Source of the DNA: a virus
Strand: one strand, 5' to 3'
Length of the DNA stretch: 8,433 nt
UHGV virus genome: UHGV-1374310
A model generated the notes under the pieces. That model ran no database searches and was not told the origin of the DNA. It saw only the letters and a list, made by a program, of their open reading frames with translations. Each line of letters starts with the position of its first letter. Position 1 is the stretch's first letter. Of the stretch, positions 1 through 8,433 are shown piece by piece. Position numbers and translations under genes: made by a program.

Positions 1-2
1 TA

Positions 3-377
3 TCCGACAATAAGAATCCCGAAGAACATCAGAGACATTCCCCAGCCAGTTCCATACCACGAAACCATATCATCGAAAACCAGCCCACCCGTTTCACGAA
101 CTCCGGCAGCTTCCTTAAGAATTGGCTTGAATACCGGAATCAGAAGGGCGATCGCCAGTGGAGCACCCCAGCGAATAAGGCCAGTTTCCATTTTGATCCC
201 GAAAAAGATCCCCGCACCGACAACAAGCAGCCAGACTATCAGGCCAGGCGCAGTTTCCAGTGCTGTTTGCCATTCAACATCGAAAGTTTTCATTAGCCAG
301 GCAACAACTGCCAGACAGAAAGCAAATACGCCTACAACAACCAGTTCAACGCCGCTTGTTTCGTTATTTCTACTCAT
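3..377 (-). CDS. Hypothetical integral membrane protein, C-terminus cut by the window edge (at least 125 aa)
   Basis: Minus-strand ATG at 377-375 preceded by AGGA (6 nt spacing); my translation MSRNNETSGVELVVVGVFAFCLAVVAWLMKTF...GMSLMFFGILIVG has several hydrophobic segments and no stop before position 3. Absent from the ORF track, presumably because it has no in-window stop. Confidence 0.5.
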   Translation of the reverse strand, partial: MSRNNETSGVELVVVGVFAFCLAVVAWLMKTFDVEWQTALETAPGLIVWLLVVGAGIFFGIKMETGLIRWGAPLAIALLIPVFKPILKEAAGVRETGGLVFDDMVSWYGTGWGMSLMFFGILIVG

Positions 378-420
378 CCTTTTGATCCTTTGTTGCTGTT
401 CAAAATCCGCACAATAAAGA

Positions 421-447
421 ACGTGCAGTGTAGGTAATACTGCACGT
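421..447. promoter_or_regulatory. Perfect inverted repeat ACGTGCAGT-9 nt-ACTGCACGT, next to a second 6-bp-arm palindrome GTACCA-TTCG-TGGTAC (450-465); operator or terminator/attenuator
   Basis: Arms 421-429 and 439-447 are exact reverse complements. It lies between the stop of the small minus-strand gene (466) and the start of the membrane-protein gene (377), and on the minus-strand transcript is followed by UCUUUAUU. Confidence 0.4.
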
Positions 448-465
448 TTGTACCATTCGTGGTAC

Positions 466-648
466 TTAATCCTTTTGTTTGGCAGACATGAGATCTTCTG
501 CTGCATCTTTAGAGTAGTTATCAATCAGATAACCTAAAATCTCTGTCCATGTAATTGTTTTTCCTAGTTTTACACTGGCATTTATAGCCAGTCGTTCTAG
601 TTTCATTTTTCTTTCTTCCGTCACGTTATAAGTCGTGCGCTTTGCCAT
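466..648 (-). CDS. Small (60 aa) putative DNA-binding transcriptional regulator, ribbon-helix-helix-like; candidate phage repressor
   Basis: ORF track protein MAKRTTYNVTEERKMKLERLAINASVKLGKTITWTEILGYLIDNY...; size and a strand-helix-helix-like pattern; it sits upstream of and opposite to gII, the position of rstR in CTXphi. SD is weak. Fold assignment is inference. Confidence 0.5.
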   Translation of the reverse strand: MAKRTTYNVTEERKMKLERLAINASVKLGKTITWTEILGYLIDNYSKDAAEDLMSAKQKD

Positions 649-695
649 TTTTTACGCTCGTTCAATGCAATATTTGAAGTGAGTATACATGCTCA

Positions 696-775
696 TGAAC
701 TCATATCATCCAATCCTCTTGAACTCACTAGCTCACTGGTGTAATGTTAAAACACTAATGAACTACTGAACTCAT
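696..775. promoter_or_regulatory. Control region upstream of gII: four direct repeats of TGAACTCA(T/C)/TGAACTAC and a candidate sigma70 promoter
   Basis: TGAACTCAT at 696-704, TGAACTCAC at 720-728, TGAACTACT at 759-767, TGAACTCAT at 767-775. Candidate -35 TTGAAC (719-724) and -10 TAATGT (742-747) with 17-bp spacing; one repeat overlaps the -35. Confidence 0.4.
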
Positions 776-817
776 GTGTTAGTAAGTCATCATTTTTGTA
801 ATTTTGAGGATTTATTC

Positions 818-1870
818 GTGATCGATTGGCTTACCGGGATTTTCCCTTGCACACACAAACCGCTTCCGGCGGGGAGTGTTGTCAGCGTTGATGCTGACGG
901 TGCAATTGAGTGGGAAACCGTTAAGCGACTGACTGTTCGCGGTTCGCATGAAGCAACGATGAAAGTACGATCGATAGGATCTAATGGCGAAGGTAAAGCG
1001 ACACATTTGTACATTGATGGTAATCCTTCCAAGTTTCTGCAGGGGCATTCTGTTGTTGGGTCGGATGATATACAAGGGCTCATGTTGACGGTCTATGCCA
1101 GGATTTTATCCTTATTGAATATTCCTCATGATTTAGCGTCTTATAAAGCCGTTATGGCAGGTCAGTATAAAATTTCACGTATTGACATTAATTACATGTA
1201 TTCATTATCTACGCTGGAAAATGTCAGATCATGGCTTTATGCCGCCGAATTTAAAGCTAAAACACGCCATGGTCGCGCATGTGGGAAAGGCGGTACAGTT
1301 TATTTAGGTAAAAACTCCCGTCGATGGAGTCTGAAATTTTATTCAAAATATGATGAACACGTTTCTGGTAAAAAAGGGCACCAGATAGCCGAAGAGTTTG
1401 TACGAGCCGGGTTACTGGACTGGACGAAAGATAAATTACGTATTGAATTAACATTAAGAACAACTGAGCTTATTGATTTAAATTTAACGCTTGGCGCTAA
1501 CTGGAATATGAAAACACCACGTCAATTATTCTCTGAATATGTAGGGAGAATAGAAATGAATCAGAATGCTATTTTAAGTGATGAAAAAATAACGAAACTG
1601 CCAAGAAAAATACAGTCAACTTATTTACTTTGGAAACAAGGGGCTAACATGAAAGAAATGTTACCTCATAACACTTTTTATCGCCATAGAAGAGAATTGC
1701 TTTCGTTCGGTATCGATATTAATTTCTATTGTGATTCACCAGACTCTAATAACGTTGTTCCGCTAATAAGAACGCTGGAAGCCAAGCCAGCGGAAATCCC
1801 CTTATGGATTTATGAGAAAGGTTTTATTTTCGATTACAACCGTATTTCGCACGCCAGTAGCTGGCATTAA
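818..1870 (+). CDS. gII: Replication initiation protein pII (rolling-circle nickase)
   Basis: Recalled M13 pII aligns: VIDWLTGIFPC vs MIDMLVLRLPF at the N-terminus, KFLQGHSVVG vs KVLQGHNVFG, SRIDINY vs SRIDATF, NNVVPLIR vs NNVVPLVR. Start set at GTG 818 (GAGGA at 806-810, 7 nt spacing); the track's GTG at 776 is an upstream extension. Confidence 0.9.
   Translation: MIDWLTGIFPCTHKPLPAGSVVSVDADGAIEWETVKRLTVRGSHEATMKVRSIGSNGEGKATHLYIDGNPSKFLQGHSVVGSDDIQGLMLTVYARILSLLNIPHDLASYKAVMAGQYKISRIDINYMYSLSTLENVRSWLYAAEFKAKTRHGRACGKGGTVYLGKNSRRWSLKFYSKYDEHVSGKKGHQIAEEFVRAGLLDWTKDKLRIELTLRTTELIDLNLTLGANWNMKTPRQLFSEYVGRIEMNQNAILSDEKITKLPRKIQSTYLLWKQGANMKEMLPHNTFYRHRRELLSFGIDINFYCDSPDSNNVVPLIRTLEAKPAEIPLWIYEKGFIFDYNRISHASSWH
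1508..1870 (+). CDS. gX: pX, in-frame internal initiation product of gII (predicted by analogy with Ff)
   Basis: Internal ATG at 1508 gives a 120-aa C-terminal product; the NNVVPL motif falls at about the same distance from this Met as in M13 pX (111 aa). No strong SD; call is by analogy. Confidence 0.45.
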   Translation: MKTPRQLFSEYVGRIEMNQNAILSDEKITKLPRKIQSTYLLWKQGANMKEMLPHNTFYRHRRELLSFGIDINFYCDSPDSNNVVPLIRTLEAKPAEIPLWIYEKGFIFDYNRISHASSWH

Positions 1871-2691: not shown

Positions 2692-3951
2692 ATGAGAAGG
2701 AAAATATTAATTCTTTCCGCTGTCCTCATTTCTCCTTTTTCACATGCTGAGTCATGGGAAAGCATTACTAAATCCACTTATCAAAGTTCTGCCTATGCTG
2801 AAAGTAAGCAAATAACCAATCAGGATGGCTCTAAGATAACGGTTTACTATATTGATGCTGCTATGCAGGCCTCCGCTTGTCAGGGTGCTAAATCCAGTGC
2901 TCAGAGTGTATTTACTCGGATTAAACCAACTTATGAGGGTATCTGGCCTGATTCTGAATTCCGTCTTGTTTTTACTGGCGATTGTACTTACAGCGATTCA
3001 CCAGGGCAGAAGGATAAATATTGGTCTTTAACGGCTTATATTGTTGGTAATATTCAGCGTTCTGTTCCTGATGAAAAACCTACTGACCCGACACCAGAAG
3101 AAATTTGTGAAGCGAAGCCGCCAGAAGAAGGTGTATTTAATAATGTTGATTCATATGATGGTGGTCGCTATATCTACTATAACGGCTGTGAATATGAGGC
3201 TACTGGTGTCATTGTTTGTCAGGGTGATGGTACTGTTTGCGCTGCAACATGGAAGCCTACAGGTGCTGTAGCTGACCCCTCTGATAAACCCTCAACCCCC
3301 CAAAATGGTGGTGGTGAGTCCGGTGGTGGTGAGTCCGGTGGTGGTGAGTCTGGCGGTGGTGAGTCCGGTGGCGGTAGTTCTGGCGGTAGTTCTGGCGGTA
3401 GTTCTGGCGGTGGCTCTAGTGGTTCCAGTCTTTCTAAAGGTGATATTCAGTCTGCGATCGAAGGTGCTTCACCCAAAATAGCCAGCGATATTCATGATAA
3501 ATTAACGGAGAAAGACACTTCATCAGATGATAAAAAAAATGCCGATGAACAAACCAGGAATAATATAAATCGTCTTGACGATTCCATTAACAATCTTACG
3601 CGGGGGGCTGGCCGTTTTGCTGACCCTTCAGGTGGTGATTCTCGTTATGGAAAGGGCGACTCTGAATTAGATGGCGCTTCTACTTTAGCTGATTCTGAAT
3701 TGGGAATTGAAAAGGATTCTCACGGTGCTTTATGGGAAGCATTTTTAAATAAAGGTGCTATGCTGCCTAATTTACCCAATGGTAACGGCTGCTCTGATTT
3801 TATTATTTTTCCCGGAGAGGTTTATCAGATTGATATTGGTTGCGATAAATTACTGACTATTAAAGATGTTCTTTCATGGGTTTTTTATTGCCTTACGTTC
3901 TGGTATGTCTTTACTTCTTTAACTTCATTGCTTCGCAAAGGGGGTGAGTGA
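2692..3951 (+). CDS. gIII: Minor coat / adsorption protein pIII
   Basis: Signal peptide [19 protein letters not shown]; internal motif [29 protein letters not shown] resembles the M13 N1 (TolA-binding) motif YEGCLWNATGVVVCTGDETQCYGTWVPIG; glycine-rich linker (GGGES x4 then SSGG units); C-terminal anchor [21 protein letters not shown]...[14 protein letters not shown] resembles the M13 pIII C-terminus. The track's start at 2548 is an N-terminal over-extension. Confidence 0.9.
3307..3429 (+). repeat. In-frame tandem repeats inside gIII (15-bp GGTGGTGGTGAGTCC units, then 12-bp GGCGGTAGTTCT units) encoding the Gly/Ser/Glu linker
   Basis: Directly visible near-identical tandem units with wobble-position variation. 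Confidence 0.85.
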
Positions 3952-4292: not shown

Positions 4293-5387
4293 ATGGCGGT
4301 TTATGTAGTAACAGGCAAATTAGGCTCAGGCAAGACACTTGTTAGTGTTTCCAGAATACAGGAAAGACTTGCTAAGGGTTGTCCTGTTGCCACTAATCTT
4401 GATCTTAAATTGCATAATATGCCTATGGTTGGGCGTTATGCGAAAAAAACGCGCGTTATTCGCATTCCTGACAAGCCTTCATTAAATGATTTACTTGCTA
4501 TTGGTATTGGGAATACATCTTACGATGAATCCCGTAATGGCCTCCTTGTACTTGATGAATGTGGTACTTGGTTTAATTCCCGCTCATGGGGTGATAAAGA
4601 CAGACAACCTGTTATTGACTGGTTTTTACATGCCAGAAAATTAGGCTGGGATATTATATTTTTGATTCAGGATATTTCGATAATGGATAAGCAAGCTCGT
4701 CTGGCGCTTGCTGAGCATGTTGTTTATTGTCGCCGTTCAGATAAATTAAACATTCCTTTTGTTGGCTCCATTATGAATTTGGTTTCAGGGGCGAGATTTT
4801 CTTTACCAAAGGTACACTTTGGCATTGTCAAATATGGTGATAATGTTAATTCAATCACTGTTGATAAATGGATATATACAGGAAAATCTCTTTATTCTGC
4901 TTACAATACCAAACAAGCGTTCACAGATAATTATCCTCATGGCGCATTTTCGCTTTTGCCACCATTTATCACGCACGGTCAATTTTCTGTTCACAGAGGA
5001 TTTAATTATTATATGCGCCTCACTAAAATTTATTTTCGCAAATCGAACCGTCTTATATTAATGCTTTCTTTTTTGGCGCTGGGGCTTGCGTTTGGTTTCT
5101 GGCTCCAGTCTGGAAAGAATGTTGATGAAATCTCAGCTATTAAATCTGCTTATGCTGAACAGGCGAGGGCGGTAACGCCTGATTCGTCCAGTGACTTACC
5201 CCGACTTTCTATTAATTCTTTTTCACAACTTGGCTTTGACGTTTCCGTTACGTTTGTTGATGCAAAAGGTATGAAATATCAGTATTTTGATTTGATTAAA
5301 GATGGTTATTCCGTTGATATTAAAGATGCCTGTCGTGTTGTTATTAGAAAAGGCCGTTATTTACAGACTGTTACCTGTCAGGAGTAA
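4293..5387 (+). CDS. gI: Assembly ATPase pI (Zot-like), Walker A GKLGSGKT
   Basis: Strong similarity to recalled M13 pI throughout (MAVYVVTGKLGSGKTLVSV..., LLVLDECGTWFN, IDWFLHARKLGWDIIFL, AEHVVYCRR). ATG follows the gVI stop directly. Confidence 0.95.
   Translation: MAVYVVTGKLGSGKTLVSVSRIQERLAKGCPVATNLDLKLHNMPMVGRYAKKTRVIRIPDKPSLNDLLAIGIGNTSYDESRNGLLVLDECGTWFNSRSWGDKDRQPVIDWFLHARKLGWDIIFLIQDISIMDKQARLALAEHVVYCRRSDKLNIPFVGSIMNLVSGARFSLPKVHFGIVKYGDNVNSITVDKWIYTGKSLYSAYNTKQAFTDNYPHGAFSLLPPFITHGQFSVHRGFNYYMRLTKIYFRKSNRLILMLSFLALGLAFGFWLQSGKNVDEISAIKSAYAEQARAVTPDSSSDLPRLSINSFSQLGFDVSVTFVDAKGMKYQYFDLIKDGYSVDIKDACRVVIRKGRYLQTVTCQE
5013..5387 (+). CDS. gXI: pXI, in-frame internal initiation product of gI (predicted)
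   Basis: Internal Met at codon 241 of pI (MRLTKIYFRK...), the same codon position as the M13 pXI start (MKLTKIYLKK...), just before the transmembrane segment. Confidence 0.5.
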   Translation: MRLTKIYFRKSNRLILMLSFLALGLAFGFWLQSGKNVDEISAIKSAYAEQARAVTPDSSSDLPRLSINSFSQLGFDVSVTFVDAKGMKYQYFDLIKDGYSVDIKDACRVVIRKGRYLQTVTCQE

Positions 5388-5394
5388 TATTATT

Positions 5395-6660
5395 ATGCGC
5401 TCTGTTATTGTTGCTTTTTTATTTGCCTGTTCATTCTGCGTTTCTGCTGAAACTGTTAATTTAAATAATTCATCTGTTCGCTCATTTGTTCAGCGGTATT
5501 CTTCAAAAACTGGCAAGCCTGTTATTGTTAATCCTGATATTAAAGGAAACGTAACCGTATTTAATGCTGATGTTAATCCAACAAATATTGATGATTTCTT
5601 TAAGTCTGTTCTGAATGCTAACGGTTTTGTCATGCTTTCTGGCAATCCTGCGGTAGTCTCTTTGCCGTCTAAATTACCTTCACAGATGGTTTCGGATTCC
5701 GATGATTCTGATAACCAGTCTTATGATACTTTTCCTTCTGAGCCATCTTACCAGCCAGTACCTGTGGCGCTTACGGTCAGAAATTTTAAGCTGACAAAAG
5801 TTAGATCGTCCGATGTTCAGCAACTGATTAAAATTTATCTTGATTCTAATGGTGGTGGTAATGTCGTGGATTATCCAGGCAATAACTCGCTGATTGTTTC
5901 TGCGCCTGACGAGCTGCTGCCGGTTCTGTCCGATTTTATCAATTCTGTGGATGTTGCCCGCGATCAGGTTCTCATTCAGTCGCTGATGTTTGAAACCAGC
6001 TTGTCTGATGGCGTTGATTTATCGTTTGCGGCAGGTTCTGCATCCGGTCATAAGGTTGCGGGGGGCTTTAATACTTCTGCACTGGGTAGCGCTCTTTCTA
6101 CGGCGGGCGGTTCTTTTGGTATTTTTGATGGTAACGTGTTGGCGCTGTCTCTGCGTGCTGTCCAGAGTAATTCACGCTCTAAGGTGATTTCAACGCCGCG
6201 TATTCTTACTCAGTCTGGTCAGACTGGTTACATTTCCGTAGGTAAGAATGTGCCGTTTATCACCGGAAAGGTAACGGGCGAATCTGCCGGGGTAAATAAT
6301 CCGTTTCAGACTATCGAGCGTCATGATGTTGGCGTTTCTCTCAAGGTAACGCCTGTTGTCATGGGTAACGGGCAACTAGTTCTGACTATCGACACTCGCG
6401 CTGATTCAATCAGCAATGATGATCAGGCATCCGATATTATTACTAATCAGCGCCAGATTCAGACGACAGTCCAGATTAAGGATGGTCAGACGTTGTTATT
6501 GGGGGGGCTTATCGATTCATCGTTCAGCAATGCCGAGCGTTCAGTTCCAGTTATAAGTAAAATTCCTCTTATAGGCTGGATTTTCAGTAGCAAGGCAGAC
6601 AGCAATGAACAGCGTATTATGTATATTTTGCTTACAGCACATATCATTCGTCCACTTTGA
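5395..6660 (+). CDS. gIV: Outer-membrane secretin pIV precursor
   Basis: Signal peptide MRSVIVAFLFACSFCVSA; extensive similarity to recalled M13 pIV (LDFSFAAGS, GGSFGIF, PRILT.SGQ.G.ISVG.NVPFITG.VTGESA.VNNPFQTIER, TNQR.I.TTV...DGQTLLLGGL, SKIPLIG). SD AGGAG at 5380-5384. The track's start at 5302 is an over-extension overlapping gI. Confidence 0.95.
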   Translation: MRSVIVAFLFACSFCVSAETVNLNNSSVRSFVQRYSSKTGKPVIVNPDIKGNVTVFNADVNPTNIDDFFKSVLNANGFVMLSGNPAVVSLPSKLPSQMVSDSDDSDNQSYDTFPSEPSYQPVPVALTVRNFKLTKVRSSDVQQLIKIYLDSNGGGNVVDYPGNNSLIVSAPDELLPVLSDFINSVDVARDQVLIQSLMFETSLSDGVDLSFAAGSASGHKVAGGFNTSALGSALSTAGGSFGIFDGNVLALSLRAVQSNSRSKVISTPRILTQSGQTGYISVGKNVPFITGKVTGESAGVNNPFQTIERHDVGVSLKVTPVVMGNGQLVLTIDTRADSISNDDQASDIITNQRQIQTTVQIKDGQTLLLGGLIDSSFSNAERSVPVISKIPLIGWIFSSKADSNEQRIMYILLTAHIIRPL

Positions 6661-6703
6661 TGGATAGCGGGTAGGTGCGTGAGCCCTGCTCGCTATCCAT
6701 CAA
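6657..6703 (+). terminator. 13-bp-stem hairpin overlapping the gIV stop: terminator and/or packaging-signal-like element
   Basis: TTGATGGATAGCG (6657-6669) and CGCTATCCATCAA (6691-6703) are exact reverse complements with a 21-nt loop. Ff phages have the packaging-signal hairpin, which also acts as a terminator, in this position after gIV. No T-run follows. Confidence 0.5.
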
Positions 6704-6729
6704 ATGGACATTATTGATTGGGGTAACTA

Positions 6730-7038
6730 ATGGATTCTTATGGGATTTTATCTGCTCTGGCAGAACGAACGATTACAGCGGAAGAAGCAAAAACAATGAC
6801 ACTTGCAGCCAGAAGTTCTTCGGCTCAGGTAAATGAAGCATCACTTGCTCTGTTACTGATTGATAATACTCTGGATGCGATCAAAGCAGCTGCCAGTGAA
6901 GGGAAAGGATACACTTTACTTCCTTCTTATGAGATTTCTGTAAAAGCCATTGATTTAGCAGAAGAATTTTTAAGGAAACAATGCGGCTATGTTATTGATA
7001 ACCAGAATGGCGTAAGGACGGTCTATTGGTTTATATGA
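6730..7038 (+). CDS. Hypothetical protein (102 aa), accessory/cargo gene with no recognised family
   Basis: ORF track protein MDSYGILSALAERTITAEEAKTMTLAARSS...; starts about 27 nt after the hairpin; weak SD. Confidence 0.45.
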   Translation: MDSYGILSALAERTITAEEAKTMTLAARSSSAQVNEASLALLLIDNTLDAIKAAASEGKGYTLLPSYEISVKAIDLAEEFLRKQCGYVIDNQNGVRTVYWFI

Positions 7039-7155
7039 TAACCCCGGACAATGACAAAACTTGCTTTTGTTAGTGTCAGGGGTTGGCCAAGCCGAACAAT
7101 TCTGTTTTTTTAGCGTTATTGCTGATTCGGCGCGGCAGCATTACGAGGAGATAAA

Positions 7156-7389: not shown

Positions 7390-7427
7390 CGGCACCGGTA
7401 ACGCCAGTTCCCGCCATCCTTACCATT

Positions 7428-7460
7428 GGTGCGCATAATGTAGGACTCGTTATGTTGAAA
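7428..7460 (+). other. dif-like XerC/XerD recombination site with an extended 11-bp central region (candidate attP half-site 1)
   Basis: GGTGCGCATAA-TGTAGGACTCG-TTATGTTGAAA versus recalled E. coli dif GGTGCGCATAA-TGTATA-TTATGTTAAAT: XerC arm 11/11 plus the next 4 nt identical, XerD arm 9/11. Confidence 0.6.
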
Positions 7461-7494
7461 AGGCCGCTGCGAAAATCGAATCCCGCAGCGGCCT
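7461..7494. terminator. 11-bp-stem hairpin between the two dif-like sites; likely bidirectional terminator for the convergent gene blocks and apex of the putative attP fold
   Basis: AGGCCGCTGCG (7461-7471) and CGCAGCGGCCT (7484-7494) are exact reverse complements with a 12-nt loop; on the minus-strand transcript the stem is followed by UUUUCAACAUAAC. Lies between convergent genes ending at 7389 and 7537. Confidence 0.6.
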
Positions 7495-7521
7495 CTTTAG
7501 CATAACGTCATTGTGCGAACC
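7495..7521 (-). other. Second, inverted dif-like site (candidate attP half-site 2)
   Basis: Reverse complement of 7495-7521 reads GGTTCGCACAA-TGACG-TTATGCTAAAG: XerC-like arm 9/11 and XerD-like arm 9/11 to recalled dif, 5-nt centre; opposite orientation to site 1. Confidence 0.5.
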
Positions 7522-7536
7522 AAAATCTTTTAGATT

Positions 7537-7728
7537 TTATTTTCCGCAAGCAGGGCAGACGTTTGCATCACCAAATTGCATTGTAGTGCTTTTATTCACA
7601 CTAAAACTTTCGAATCCTTCACGTAAGGATTTTTTTTCACCATTAAAAAGATATGTTGTAAATTCTTTTTTCTCCGCATCAGTCAATTGAAGCCAGAGAG
7701 CTTTGACTTGATCTACTTTATAACTCAT
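7537..7728 (-). CDS. Hypothetical small protein (about 63 aa) ending in CPACGK; second gene of a minus-strand accessory pair
   Basis: Start chosen at the internal ATG (MSYKVDQVK...) because AAGGAG sits 6 nt upstream and overlaps the stop of the preceding gene; the track's longer form from 7770 would overlap that gene by 31 nt. Confidence 0.5.
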   Translation of the reverse strand: MSYKVDQVKALWLQLTDAEKKEFTTYLFNGEKKSLREGFESFSVNKSTTMQFGDANVCPACGK

Positions 7729-7739
7729 TTGTTTCTCCT

Positions 7740-8315
7740 TTATTTCACGAGATTGCCACAATTTGTGCAACCTTTCCGCTTGTTAAATTTAGTCGGTATT
7801 TTATTGCAACGTACGCATTCTTTATTTTTCTTTACCAGAATGTCGAACATAATCCGTTTCTTATCATTATTGCTAACATATTTTTCATCTTCCTTGGCAT
7901 TGAAGTCATCTTTTGATTTTATCACTGAAAACAAATGGTTAGCGGGTTGCTGGTTGCCTGTCTTTGATTTAAACATGCTCGACAGTTCGCCATACAAATC
8001 AGTTAGGAGTTTATTGAAAGAGTATGATTCCAGATATCGAGATAAATTTTCATCAGTCTTCATGACCAGCGTGTATAAATTAGAAAGCAAGACTATCACT
8101 GATAATATCCCTGTGCCCCAAACTAAAAAATCAAAATATTTGGAGCTGTGATCAACCGATGCGTATCCTCCAACTAGGACAGGGAGGGCAAATGATAGAT
8201 ATTGGTTTATTTTTAAAAGTCGTTCGCTTTTTTTGATTTTAGTTTTTAAGTAGTCAGCTGTTCCCTCTGCGTAAAATTTCCTGAGGTCCATTTCTTCATT
8301 CGGTTGCATACTCAT
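7740..8315 (-). CDS. Hypothetical 2-TM membrane protein with C-terminal C4 zinc ribbon (about 191 aa); candidate toxin, exclusion or defence effector
   Basis: ORF track 7740-8321 (GTG); I prefer the ATG at 8315 (AGGTG upstream). Two hydrophobic helices (LSFALPVLVGGYASV, LVWGTGILSVIVLLSNLYTLV), then a charged region ending CVRC...CTNC. Visibly AT-rich. The opposite-strand ORF 7687-8151 looks like a shadow. Confidence 0.6.
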   Translation of the reverse strand: MSMQPNEEMDLRKFYAEGTADYLKTKIKKSERLLKINQYLSFALPVLVGGYASVDHSSKYFDFLVWGTGILSVIVLLSNLYTLVMKTDENLSRYLESYSFNKLLTDLYGELSSMFKSKTGNQQPANHLFSVIKSKDDFNAKEDEKYVSNNDKKRIMFDILVKKNKECVRCNKIPTKFNKRKGCTNCGNLVK

Positions 8316-8433
8316 CTTCACCTTTCACAATATCAAACTAGCGCGGGCTGAAATTATAAAAAACCTGTAAATTCAAGTGATTGACATTCACCAATAATAT
8401 GAATTCCTTCTGTGCCACCAATAAAGCAGACCG

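Follow-up and report, generated by a model that had tools for sequence, protein, structure and literature searches.

A predicted ribbon-helix-helix repressor with putative operators and a candidate viral-strand origin upstream of gII in a filamentous prophage of Escherichia coli

How is the replication gene gII of a filamentous prophage kept in check, and which of the repeats and palindromes around the small gene upstream of it take part? These questions are raised by positions 420-818 of UHGV virus genome UHGV-1374310, a stretch of 8,433 bp that is referred to here, in its entirety, as the window. The window corresponds to a single complete unit, circularly permuted, of a filamentous prophage of E. 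coli, in which a 60-aa gene on the minus strand (648..466) is divergent from gII on the plus strand (818-1870). The initial annotation had described a regulator-like open reading frame (ORF) opposite gII; this ORF is present and is annotated in RefSeq as WP_001335098.1. We consider that the 60-aa protein is a ribbon-helix-helix (RHH) repressor with operators over both divergent promoters, and that the two palindromes at 420-465 form a separate viral-strand origin, with a probability of roughly 0.6 for this combined reading. The gene under control of the predicted switch would be gII. Its start had been placed at position 776, leaving 127 bp upstream, whereas both the RefSeq annotation and the point where homology to sister phages resumes set it at the GTG codon at 818, so that the intergenic region is 649-817 (169 bp).

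The 60-aa regulator and the boxes on the divergent promoters

The 60-aa protein matches phrog_2503 (E 3.6e-34), which PHROGs lists with function unknown, and is 41% identical to the RstR of CTXphi strain IB1617, which belongs to the same PHROG and is annotated as "environmental RstR; transcriptional repressor" (one allele compared). The analogy with rstR/rstA of CTXphi that had been drawn from the gene arrangement is therefore an actual homology. A tblastn search against phages detected homologues at the equivalent position in CTXphi IB1617, Vibrio phage VAI1 (annotated "RstR-like"), metagenomic inoviruses, and If1. In total, 65 relatives were found among 1.8 billion representative proteins, nearly all of them 58-90 aa in length. 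The structure prediction that had been suggested as a check on the fold was carried out with AlphaFold2 (AF2) on the alignment of these relatives; the model (predicted local distance difference test score, pLDDT, of 94) contains an extended N-terminus followed by two helices, i.e. an RHH-like beta-alpha-alpha fold is predicted, with an N-terminal beta-strand preceding the two helices.

The 60-aa protein is predicted on this basis to be an RHH DNA-binding protein. The likeness to known RHH repressors (MetJ, Arc/Mnt, omega, ParG, and CopG) lies in the predicted fold, and none of them shows significant sequence similarity to the 60-aa protein. MetJ binds tandem 8-bp met boxes, and the putative sites described below, which consist of contiguous 8-bp units in direct and inverted orientations, recall this arrangement. 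If the prediction is correct, phrog_2503 gains a fold and a likely function, and the proteins named "RstR" comprise at least two unrelated folds. Our literature search found no paper that ties RstR-like proteins to the RHH fold or mentions WP_001335098. Two relatives, P0077 (129 aa) and P0088 (130 aa), contain the ~60-aa domain twice in tandem within a single chain and could be covalent RHH 'dimers'.

The elements identified between the regulator gene and gII are as follows.

466..648, minus strand: 60-aa regulator gene (predicted RHH, RstR-like, phrog_2503; RefSeq WP_001335098.1)
682..709, minus strand: P_R, candidate promoter of the regulator gene; -35 ATGATA (709..704), 16-bp spacer, -10 TATACT (687..682)
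688..703: O1, putative operator, CATGCTCA + TGAACTCA, in the P_R spacer, with an exact box at 696
719..747, plus strand: P_gII, candidate promoter of gII; -35 TTGAAC (719-724), 17-bp spacer, -10 TAATGT (742-747)
720..735: O2, putative operator, TGAACTCA + CTAGCTCA, covering the P_gII -35
759..782: O3, putative operator, TGAACTAC TGAACTCA TGTGTTAG, three contiguous 8-bp units just downstream of the predicted gII transcription start
818..1870, plus strand: gII, rolling-circle replication initiator; GTG start; ribosome-binding site GAGGA at 805-809
458..818: exchangeable cassette of the regulator and its putative operators; sister-phage homology is lost from 458 or 477 until 818

Four direct repeats of 8-9 bp had been reported in this region; three of them are exact copies of TGAACTCA (at 696, 720, and 767), and the fourth, TGAACTAC at 759, is imperfect (6/8 match). 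The number of exact copies expected by chance is ~0.32 in the whole window (both strands) and ~0.006 in the intergenic region, and the probability of three or more copies of this particular 8-mer is ~4e-8. A generic test gives weaker evidence, in that some 8-mer reached at least three copies in 113 of 20000 mononucleotide shuffles. Against chance, the conservation of these putative operators across phages is a stronger argument than the copy-number statistics.

P_R is the only sigma-70-like match that the promoter scan returned in 300-900, and a -10 (TATACT, TAGAAT, or TATAAT) is conserved at the corresponding alignment position in relatives. The -35 of P_gII, which overlaps the box at 720 as had been pointed out earlier, is invariant; the relatives contain TTGAAC-17-TATCTT, TAGTAT, or TATGTT, or TTGAAC-18-TATATT (the 18-bp spacer occurs in locus L015). 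In an alignment of six phages, TCATGA of O1 and TTGAACTCA in O2 are invariant, and the second unit of O2 is TGAGTTCA in the relatives, which generates the perfect palindrome TGAACTCATGAGTTCA. In every relative, three contiguous O3 units align at this position, their orientations being mixed, and the similarity between the six phages stops at ~782. The exact O3 pattern was found in only two contigs of metagenome-assembled genomes when genome contigs were searched, and this search did not link the cassette to Y. pestis. In the 41%-identical CTXphi allele, the intergenic repeats differ (CGCATGC), and two of them are also 8 bp apart. Because the boxes overlie conserved divergent promoters, the TGAACTCA/TGAGTTCA units are best read as operators of the predicted RHH repressor; boxes that travel with a regulator and sit on both divergent promoters present the signature expected of operators.

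Several observations weigh against such a switch. The AF2 monomer lacks the beta-strand, which for an RHH protein is expected in the dimer only, and a single-sequence AF2 model of P0077, used as a stand-in for the dimer, was of low confidence (pLDDT 55). No match to the 60-aa protein was obtained in Pfam (E<=1) or in a single-sequence search of the PDB, and the sole PDB profile match, the RHH protein ParG, was not significant (E 0.53). The -10 of P_gII is weak in the window (3/6) and was missed by the promoter scan, and no LexA box (CTGT-N8-ACAG with two or fewer mismatches) is present in 600-850.

In the mechanism that we propose, dimers of the 60-aa protein would probably bind arrays of 8-bp TGAACTCA/TGAGTTCA units. 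Occupation of O1, in the spacer of the regulator's own promoter, would lead to autoregulation of the repressor, and occupation of O2, over the gII -35, and of O3, after the gII transcription start, would repress gII. Replication and virion production would then be held down, which would favour maintenance of the prophage and confer superinfection immunity.

Elements that follow the regulator and elements that follow the replication initiator

The boundaries of the regulator region were defined by blastn comparison of the window with the dif-site prophages of E. coli M11 and APEC E19057, the gII proteins of which are 87% identical to that of the window. Homology of ~95% extends over 1-476 (M11) or 1-457 (APEC E19057) and returns exactly at 819. 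In the slot between these boundaries, the two prophages encode 148- and 150-aa Xre/cI-type helix-turn-helix (HTH) regulators (phrog_3557), respectively, and their intergenic DNA contains repeats of its own, without a TGAACTCA-type box. Because the gap in homology matches the regulator and intergenic slot of the sister phages, the regulator gene together with the whole intergenic DNA up to the gII start codon is, as judged from these alignments, an exchangeable unit of the immunity type. The repressor gene and its operators would recombine between phages as one cassette.

The boxes were then compared across loci with regulators 60-88% identical to the 60-aa protein. These loci keep two to seven TGAACTCA/TGAGTTCA boxes at aligned positions, so that the comparison of repeats across related phages that had been called for bears out their conservation; in the relatives, perfect 16-bp palindromes (TGAACTCATGAGTTCA) or sets of three adjoining 8-bp units are frequently built from these boxes. 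Regulators of the predicted RHH type occur with three types of replication initiator (Rep), namely the gII type of the window, the If1-type gII (23-27% identical), and, at locus L029, an RstA-like Rep_trans protein. A locus search with the 60-aa protein as the query retrieved near-identical regulators only, and L029, with its different Rep type, was among them.

The two palindromes lie on the other side of the regulator gene.

420..448, plus strand: hairpin A, AACGTGCAGT-GTAGGTAAT-ACTGCACGTT, proposed gII nick-site hairpin
450..465, plus strand: hairpin B, GTACCA-TTCG-TGGTAC, proposed gII-binding palindrome, abutting the regulator stop codon

Both palindromes had been recognized earlier, the first of them with 9-bp arms at 421-447; its arms are in fact 10 bp long (420-429 and 439-448) and 100% complementary, and they enclose a 9-nt loop. 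A single T separates hairpin A from hairpin B. As single-stranded DNA, the two hairpins fold with -15.8 kcal/mol (z = -4.4). All 10 pairs of hairpin A are invariant in seven relatives, the left flanks of which diverge and are unrelated in several cases, and hairpin A is unchanged in phages that carry HTH regulators and the same gII type. Hairpin B of the M11 and APEC phages is GTCTCA-TTCC-TGAGAC, in which two pairs are changed on both sides and 100% pairing is retained. The M11-type phage has gII in common with the window phage and differs in its structural genes; the only non-coding DNA common to the two is 378-476 and the attP region (7427-7523). At the same place, phages with If1-type gII contain GTTCGGGG-loop-CCCCGAAC, followed by a palindrome with 6-7-bp arms that vary with compensation, and the phage with an RstA-type Rep contains the CTXphi hairpin ACCCCCGT-loop-ACGGGGGT in place of hairpins A and B. 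The element at this place thus co-varies with the initiator protein and not with the neighbouring genes, as an origin would.

The origins of the Ff phages (M13/f1) and IKe likewise consist of a hairpin with a 9-11-nt loop, 1 nt, and a short-loop palindrome, all upstream of gII on the coding strand. In IKe, the annotated "viral-strand origin stem loop" elements (6554-6580 and 6582-6599) have the layout of hairpins A and B, and they end 1 nt before the stop codon of an antisense ORF homologous to the regulator gene, a position that corresponds to that in the window. Since the hairpins are located outside the cassette, follow the Rep type, and match the layout of the IKe/M13 origin as well as its position in IKe, the palindromes at 420-465 are most likely the viral (plus)-strand origin, consisting of a gII nick hairpin and a gII-binding palindrome. 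The gII protein would nick in the loop of hairpin A, with hairpin B as the adjacent binding palindrome, and the whole element would be separate from the repressor switch.

This assignment is not without difficulties. The arms and loop differ from those of the Ff origin, and the Ff/IKe nick motif GTTCTTTAATAGTGG is absent within three mismatches on either strand, with no match in the loop of hairpin A. The AT-rich enhancer domain of the Ff origin is absent here because the regulator gene fills the space. A nick look-alike at 408-429 on the minus strand (GCAC-GTTCTTTATT-GTGC, with a partial GTTCTTTATTGTGC) was rejected as a chance match, given its location on the wrong strand and its lack of conservation among relatives. 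On the minus strand, the U-rich tail UCUUUAUU follows hairpin A, and both hairpins fold as RNA (-24 kcal/mol, z -3.0); this brings the origin reading up against the initial proposal for 421-465, i.e. that the palindromes are additional operators of the 60-aa protein or a terminator/attenuator that sets read-through into the gene for a 140-aa membrane protein.

We regard that proposal as improbable as an explanation of the palindromes. An operator role is contradicted by the lack of a TGAACTCA unit in them, by their position outside the cassette, and by their retention, unchanged or with compensation, in phages with an unrelated HTH regulator. A terminator role has points in its favour: besides the RNA folding and the tail, there is no space for a promoter of its own between hairpin A and the start of the membrane-protein gene at 377, so that read-through would be needed, and the IKe record labels its origin hairpins also as potential terminators. 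However, relatives have not conserved the U-rich tail, no U tract accompanies the If1-type hairpins on the strand concerned, and the IKe annotation shows no gene beyond the hairpins on the strand of the ORF. The terminator scan called nothing at hairpins A and B; the stem of hairpin A has 5 GC pairs out of 10, and its 9-nt loop exceeds the scan maximum of 8. Moreover, the hairpin type tracks the Rep type, which speaks against operator and terminator roles alike. The palindromes may have a secondary terminator/attenuator role ahead of the membrane-protein gene alongside the origin role.

The same contrast between regulator and Rep bears on the boxes, which had been described as operator or iteron sites. 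In the Ff phages, gII-binding repeats and an enhancer are located just upstream of gII, and one TGAACTCA repeat in the window holds the -35-like TTGAAC; by this precedent, the repeats might be gII sites (iterons or a replication enhancer) or plain promoter elements. However, the boxes also accompany the If1-type gII and a Rep_trans-type Rep that belongs to another Pfam family, and they are missing from the phages with an 87%-identical gII and another regulator. The boxes follow the regulator and not gII, which retains the operator half of the description and makes the iteron half very unlikely. Least credible is that the 60-aa protein is an antitoxin paired with the downstream membrane protein and not a phage repressor, since the two genes are 88 nt apart with the hairpins in between, the protein has no C-terminal extension for toxin binding, its homologues precede unrelated genes (in IKe, no gene), and the same membrane protein follows HTH regulators in the sister phages.

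Relation to CTXphi, CUS-1/YpfPhi, IKe, and If1

The organization of window 420-818 resembles that of CTXphi RS2 (ig-1 origin, rstR, ig-2 operators, and rstA). In both, a small repressor gene, predicted as such in the window, is divergent from the replication gene with the (putative) operators between them, the origin/nick site is on the 3' side of the repressor gene, and the repressor-operator cassette varies between otherwise similar phages. The two also resemble each other in dif integration through a region with two inverted dif-like sites. The RstA protein of CTXphi nicks in Ig-1, adjacent to rstR (PMC8265649). The systems differ in that Rep of the window phage is an Ff-type gII protein (Phage_CRI), not RstA (Rep_trans), and in that its candidate origin is a two-palindrome, Ff/IKe-like element. 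Furthermore, the classical El Tor RstR is an HTH protein, whereas the regulator here is predicted to be of the RHH type, and CTXphi P_rstA is also controlled by LexA, for which no box was found here in 600-850. The control region is an ordinary member of the CTXphi type, not described before. It leaves the prevailing view of temperate filamentous phages unchanged and offers a testable map of candidate promoters, three putative operator clusters, cassette boundaries, and a proposed origin.

The prophages of the NU14/M11 type and the window phage occupy the same dif locus beside hipA and share the gII/gV module (87% gII identity), hairpin A, the 140-aa membrane protein, and the attP region. The possibility that the window phage is CUS-1/YpfPhi itself was rejected, as the O18:K1:H7 strain NU14 carries an HTH-type relative, the slot of which encodes a 148-aa HTH regulator and the structural genes of which differ. 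The window phage is a distinct relative of the CUS-1-like phages, with a predicted RHH cassette and IKe/If1-like structural (morphogenesis) genes. In YpfPhi, YPO2273 is an RstR homologue at this position, the role of which 'awaits experimental demonstration', and RovA binds the promoter region of the gII homologue; the regulation of CUS-1 and YpfPhi is uncharacterised so far (PMC4266046).

The presence of the regulator gene had been thought to set the locus apart from the classical Ff and IKe phages, which were said to have no repressor. This did not hold, as IKe and If1 each carry an unannotated homologue at the same place. In IKe (NC_002014), it is a 65-aa antisense ORF (6604-6798, minus strand) located between the viral-strand origin and gII and matching phrog_2503 (E 2e-7). 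A 71%-identical copy is present in phage PEar4 (87-281), and the ratio of non-synonymous to synonymous substitution rates (dN/dS) between the two is 0.16 (27 synonymous and 27 non-synonymous differences). This low value implies purifying selection, and the IKe antisense ORF therefore has the appearance of a genuine gene absent from the IKe gene map. In If1 (NC_001954), the homologue lies in the 'major intergenic region' and is 58% identical in the tblastn match.

These findings point to a missed gene in IKe and If1. A broader proposal, which we advance tentatively and at somewhat less than even odds, is that filamentous phages in general possess the RHH gene as a conserved regulator that has been overlooked, that dimers bound in MetJ-like fashion to arrays of 8-bp boxes control gII, and that the cassette moves freely between Ff-, If1-, and RstA-type replication modules. 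If this proposal is true, an antisense repressor gene between the origin and gII has escaped annotation in the classical, non-integrating phages IKe and If1, and the textbook gene maps of both phages are one gene short.

Some peculiarities of these genomes were also observed. The features of the If1 regulator region are 5119-5322 (minus strand), 5388-5831 (minus strand), and 6031-7086 (plus strand). The 'major intergenic region' of If1 holds an IS200/IS605-type insertion that splits the regulator from gII and consists of a Y1 transposase gene and ORF348, a TnpB gene with OrfB_IS605 and Cas12f-like TNB domains. Between gIV and gII, the deposited sequence of PEar4 contains a rearrangement that coincides exactly with the IKe nick motif (...CACTATGTTT continues into other DNA, with AATAGTGGACTC... 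upstream), and in the same region PEar1 is without the hairpins annotated as origin, and its antisense ORF is truncated. Natural deletions may account for these oddities, as may artefacts of the rolling circle or of assembly.

The source phage, its gene layout, and its distribution

The remaining genes of the window are arranged as follows.

Plus strand: gII (818-1870), gV, gVII/gIX, gVIII, gIII, gVI, gI, gIV, and two small ORFs
Minus strand: four genes, namely the 60-aa ORF (648..466), the 140-aa membrane-protein gene, and two cargo genes
377..1 + 8433..8388, minus strand: 140-aa membrane-protein gene, spanning the window ends

The gII product matches Phage_CRI (8.8e-70) and G2P_X_C (2.1e-29) in Pfam, and a search of the window against Rfam gave no family. 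Tandem copies of the unit in E. coli C10, and single copies in UM146 and a large number of further strains, match the window at 99% identity; these prophages sit beside hipA at the dif locus. The family is carried by ~1% of complete E. coli genomes (48/5,426) and is also found in Salmonella and Klebsiella. The best explanation of these data is that the window phage is a temperate, dif-integrating phage and that 420-818 is its control and origin region. A 7.9-kb circular Salmonella record that shares the backbone from 393 onward is probably a replicative form.

The region 7427-7520 contains two inverted dif-like sites, GGTGCGCATAA...TTATGTTGAAA on the plus strand and GGTTCGCACAA...TTATGCTAAAG on the minus strand, inside an inverted repeat with 24-nt arms. 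This layout is that of the folded single-stranded attP of CTXphi, and the hipA-side prophage junctions begin here. About 90 nt of this region (7432-7523) are also present on hundreds of conjugative enterobacterial plasmids, with 90-98% identity.

Between attP and the origin hairpins, 7524-8433 and 1-392 constitute a variable cargo slot, which in the window encodes a 'mobilome CxxCx(11)CxxC' protein, a small ORF, and the 140-aa membrane protein. According to the RefSeq product names, the cargo in other strains includes a PD-(D/E)XK nuclease, an STM4504/CBY_0614 family protein, a DUF6953 protein, and a zinc-binding ECs_2282 family protein, and the 7.9-kb circular Salmonella record carries a Doc-family toxin.

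Long imperfect hairpins with 20-nt arms are located at 6656-6704 (after gIV) and 7040-7084 (after orf102) and could serve as the packaging signal and minus-strand origin; the hairpin at 6656-6704 resembles the 'morphogenetic signal' region of IKe (GGGTAGGTGCG...AGCCCTGC). The glycine-rich linker of gIII (GGGES/GGS repeats, window ~3300-3400) differs in length among strains, e.g. in E. coli C10, in which the unit is 57 bp longer and gIII is annotated at 1317 nt.
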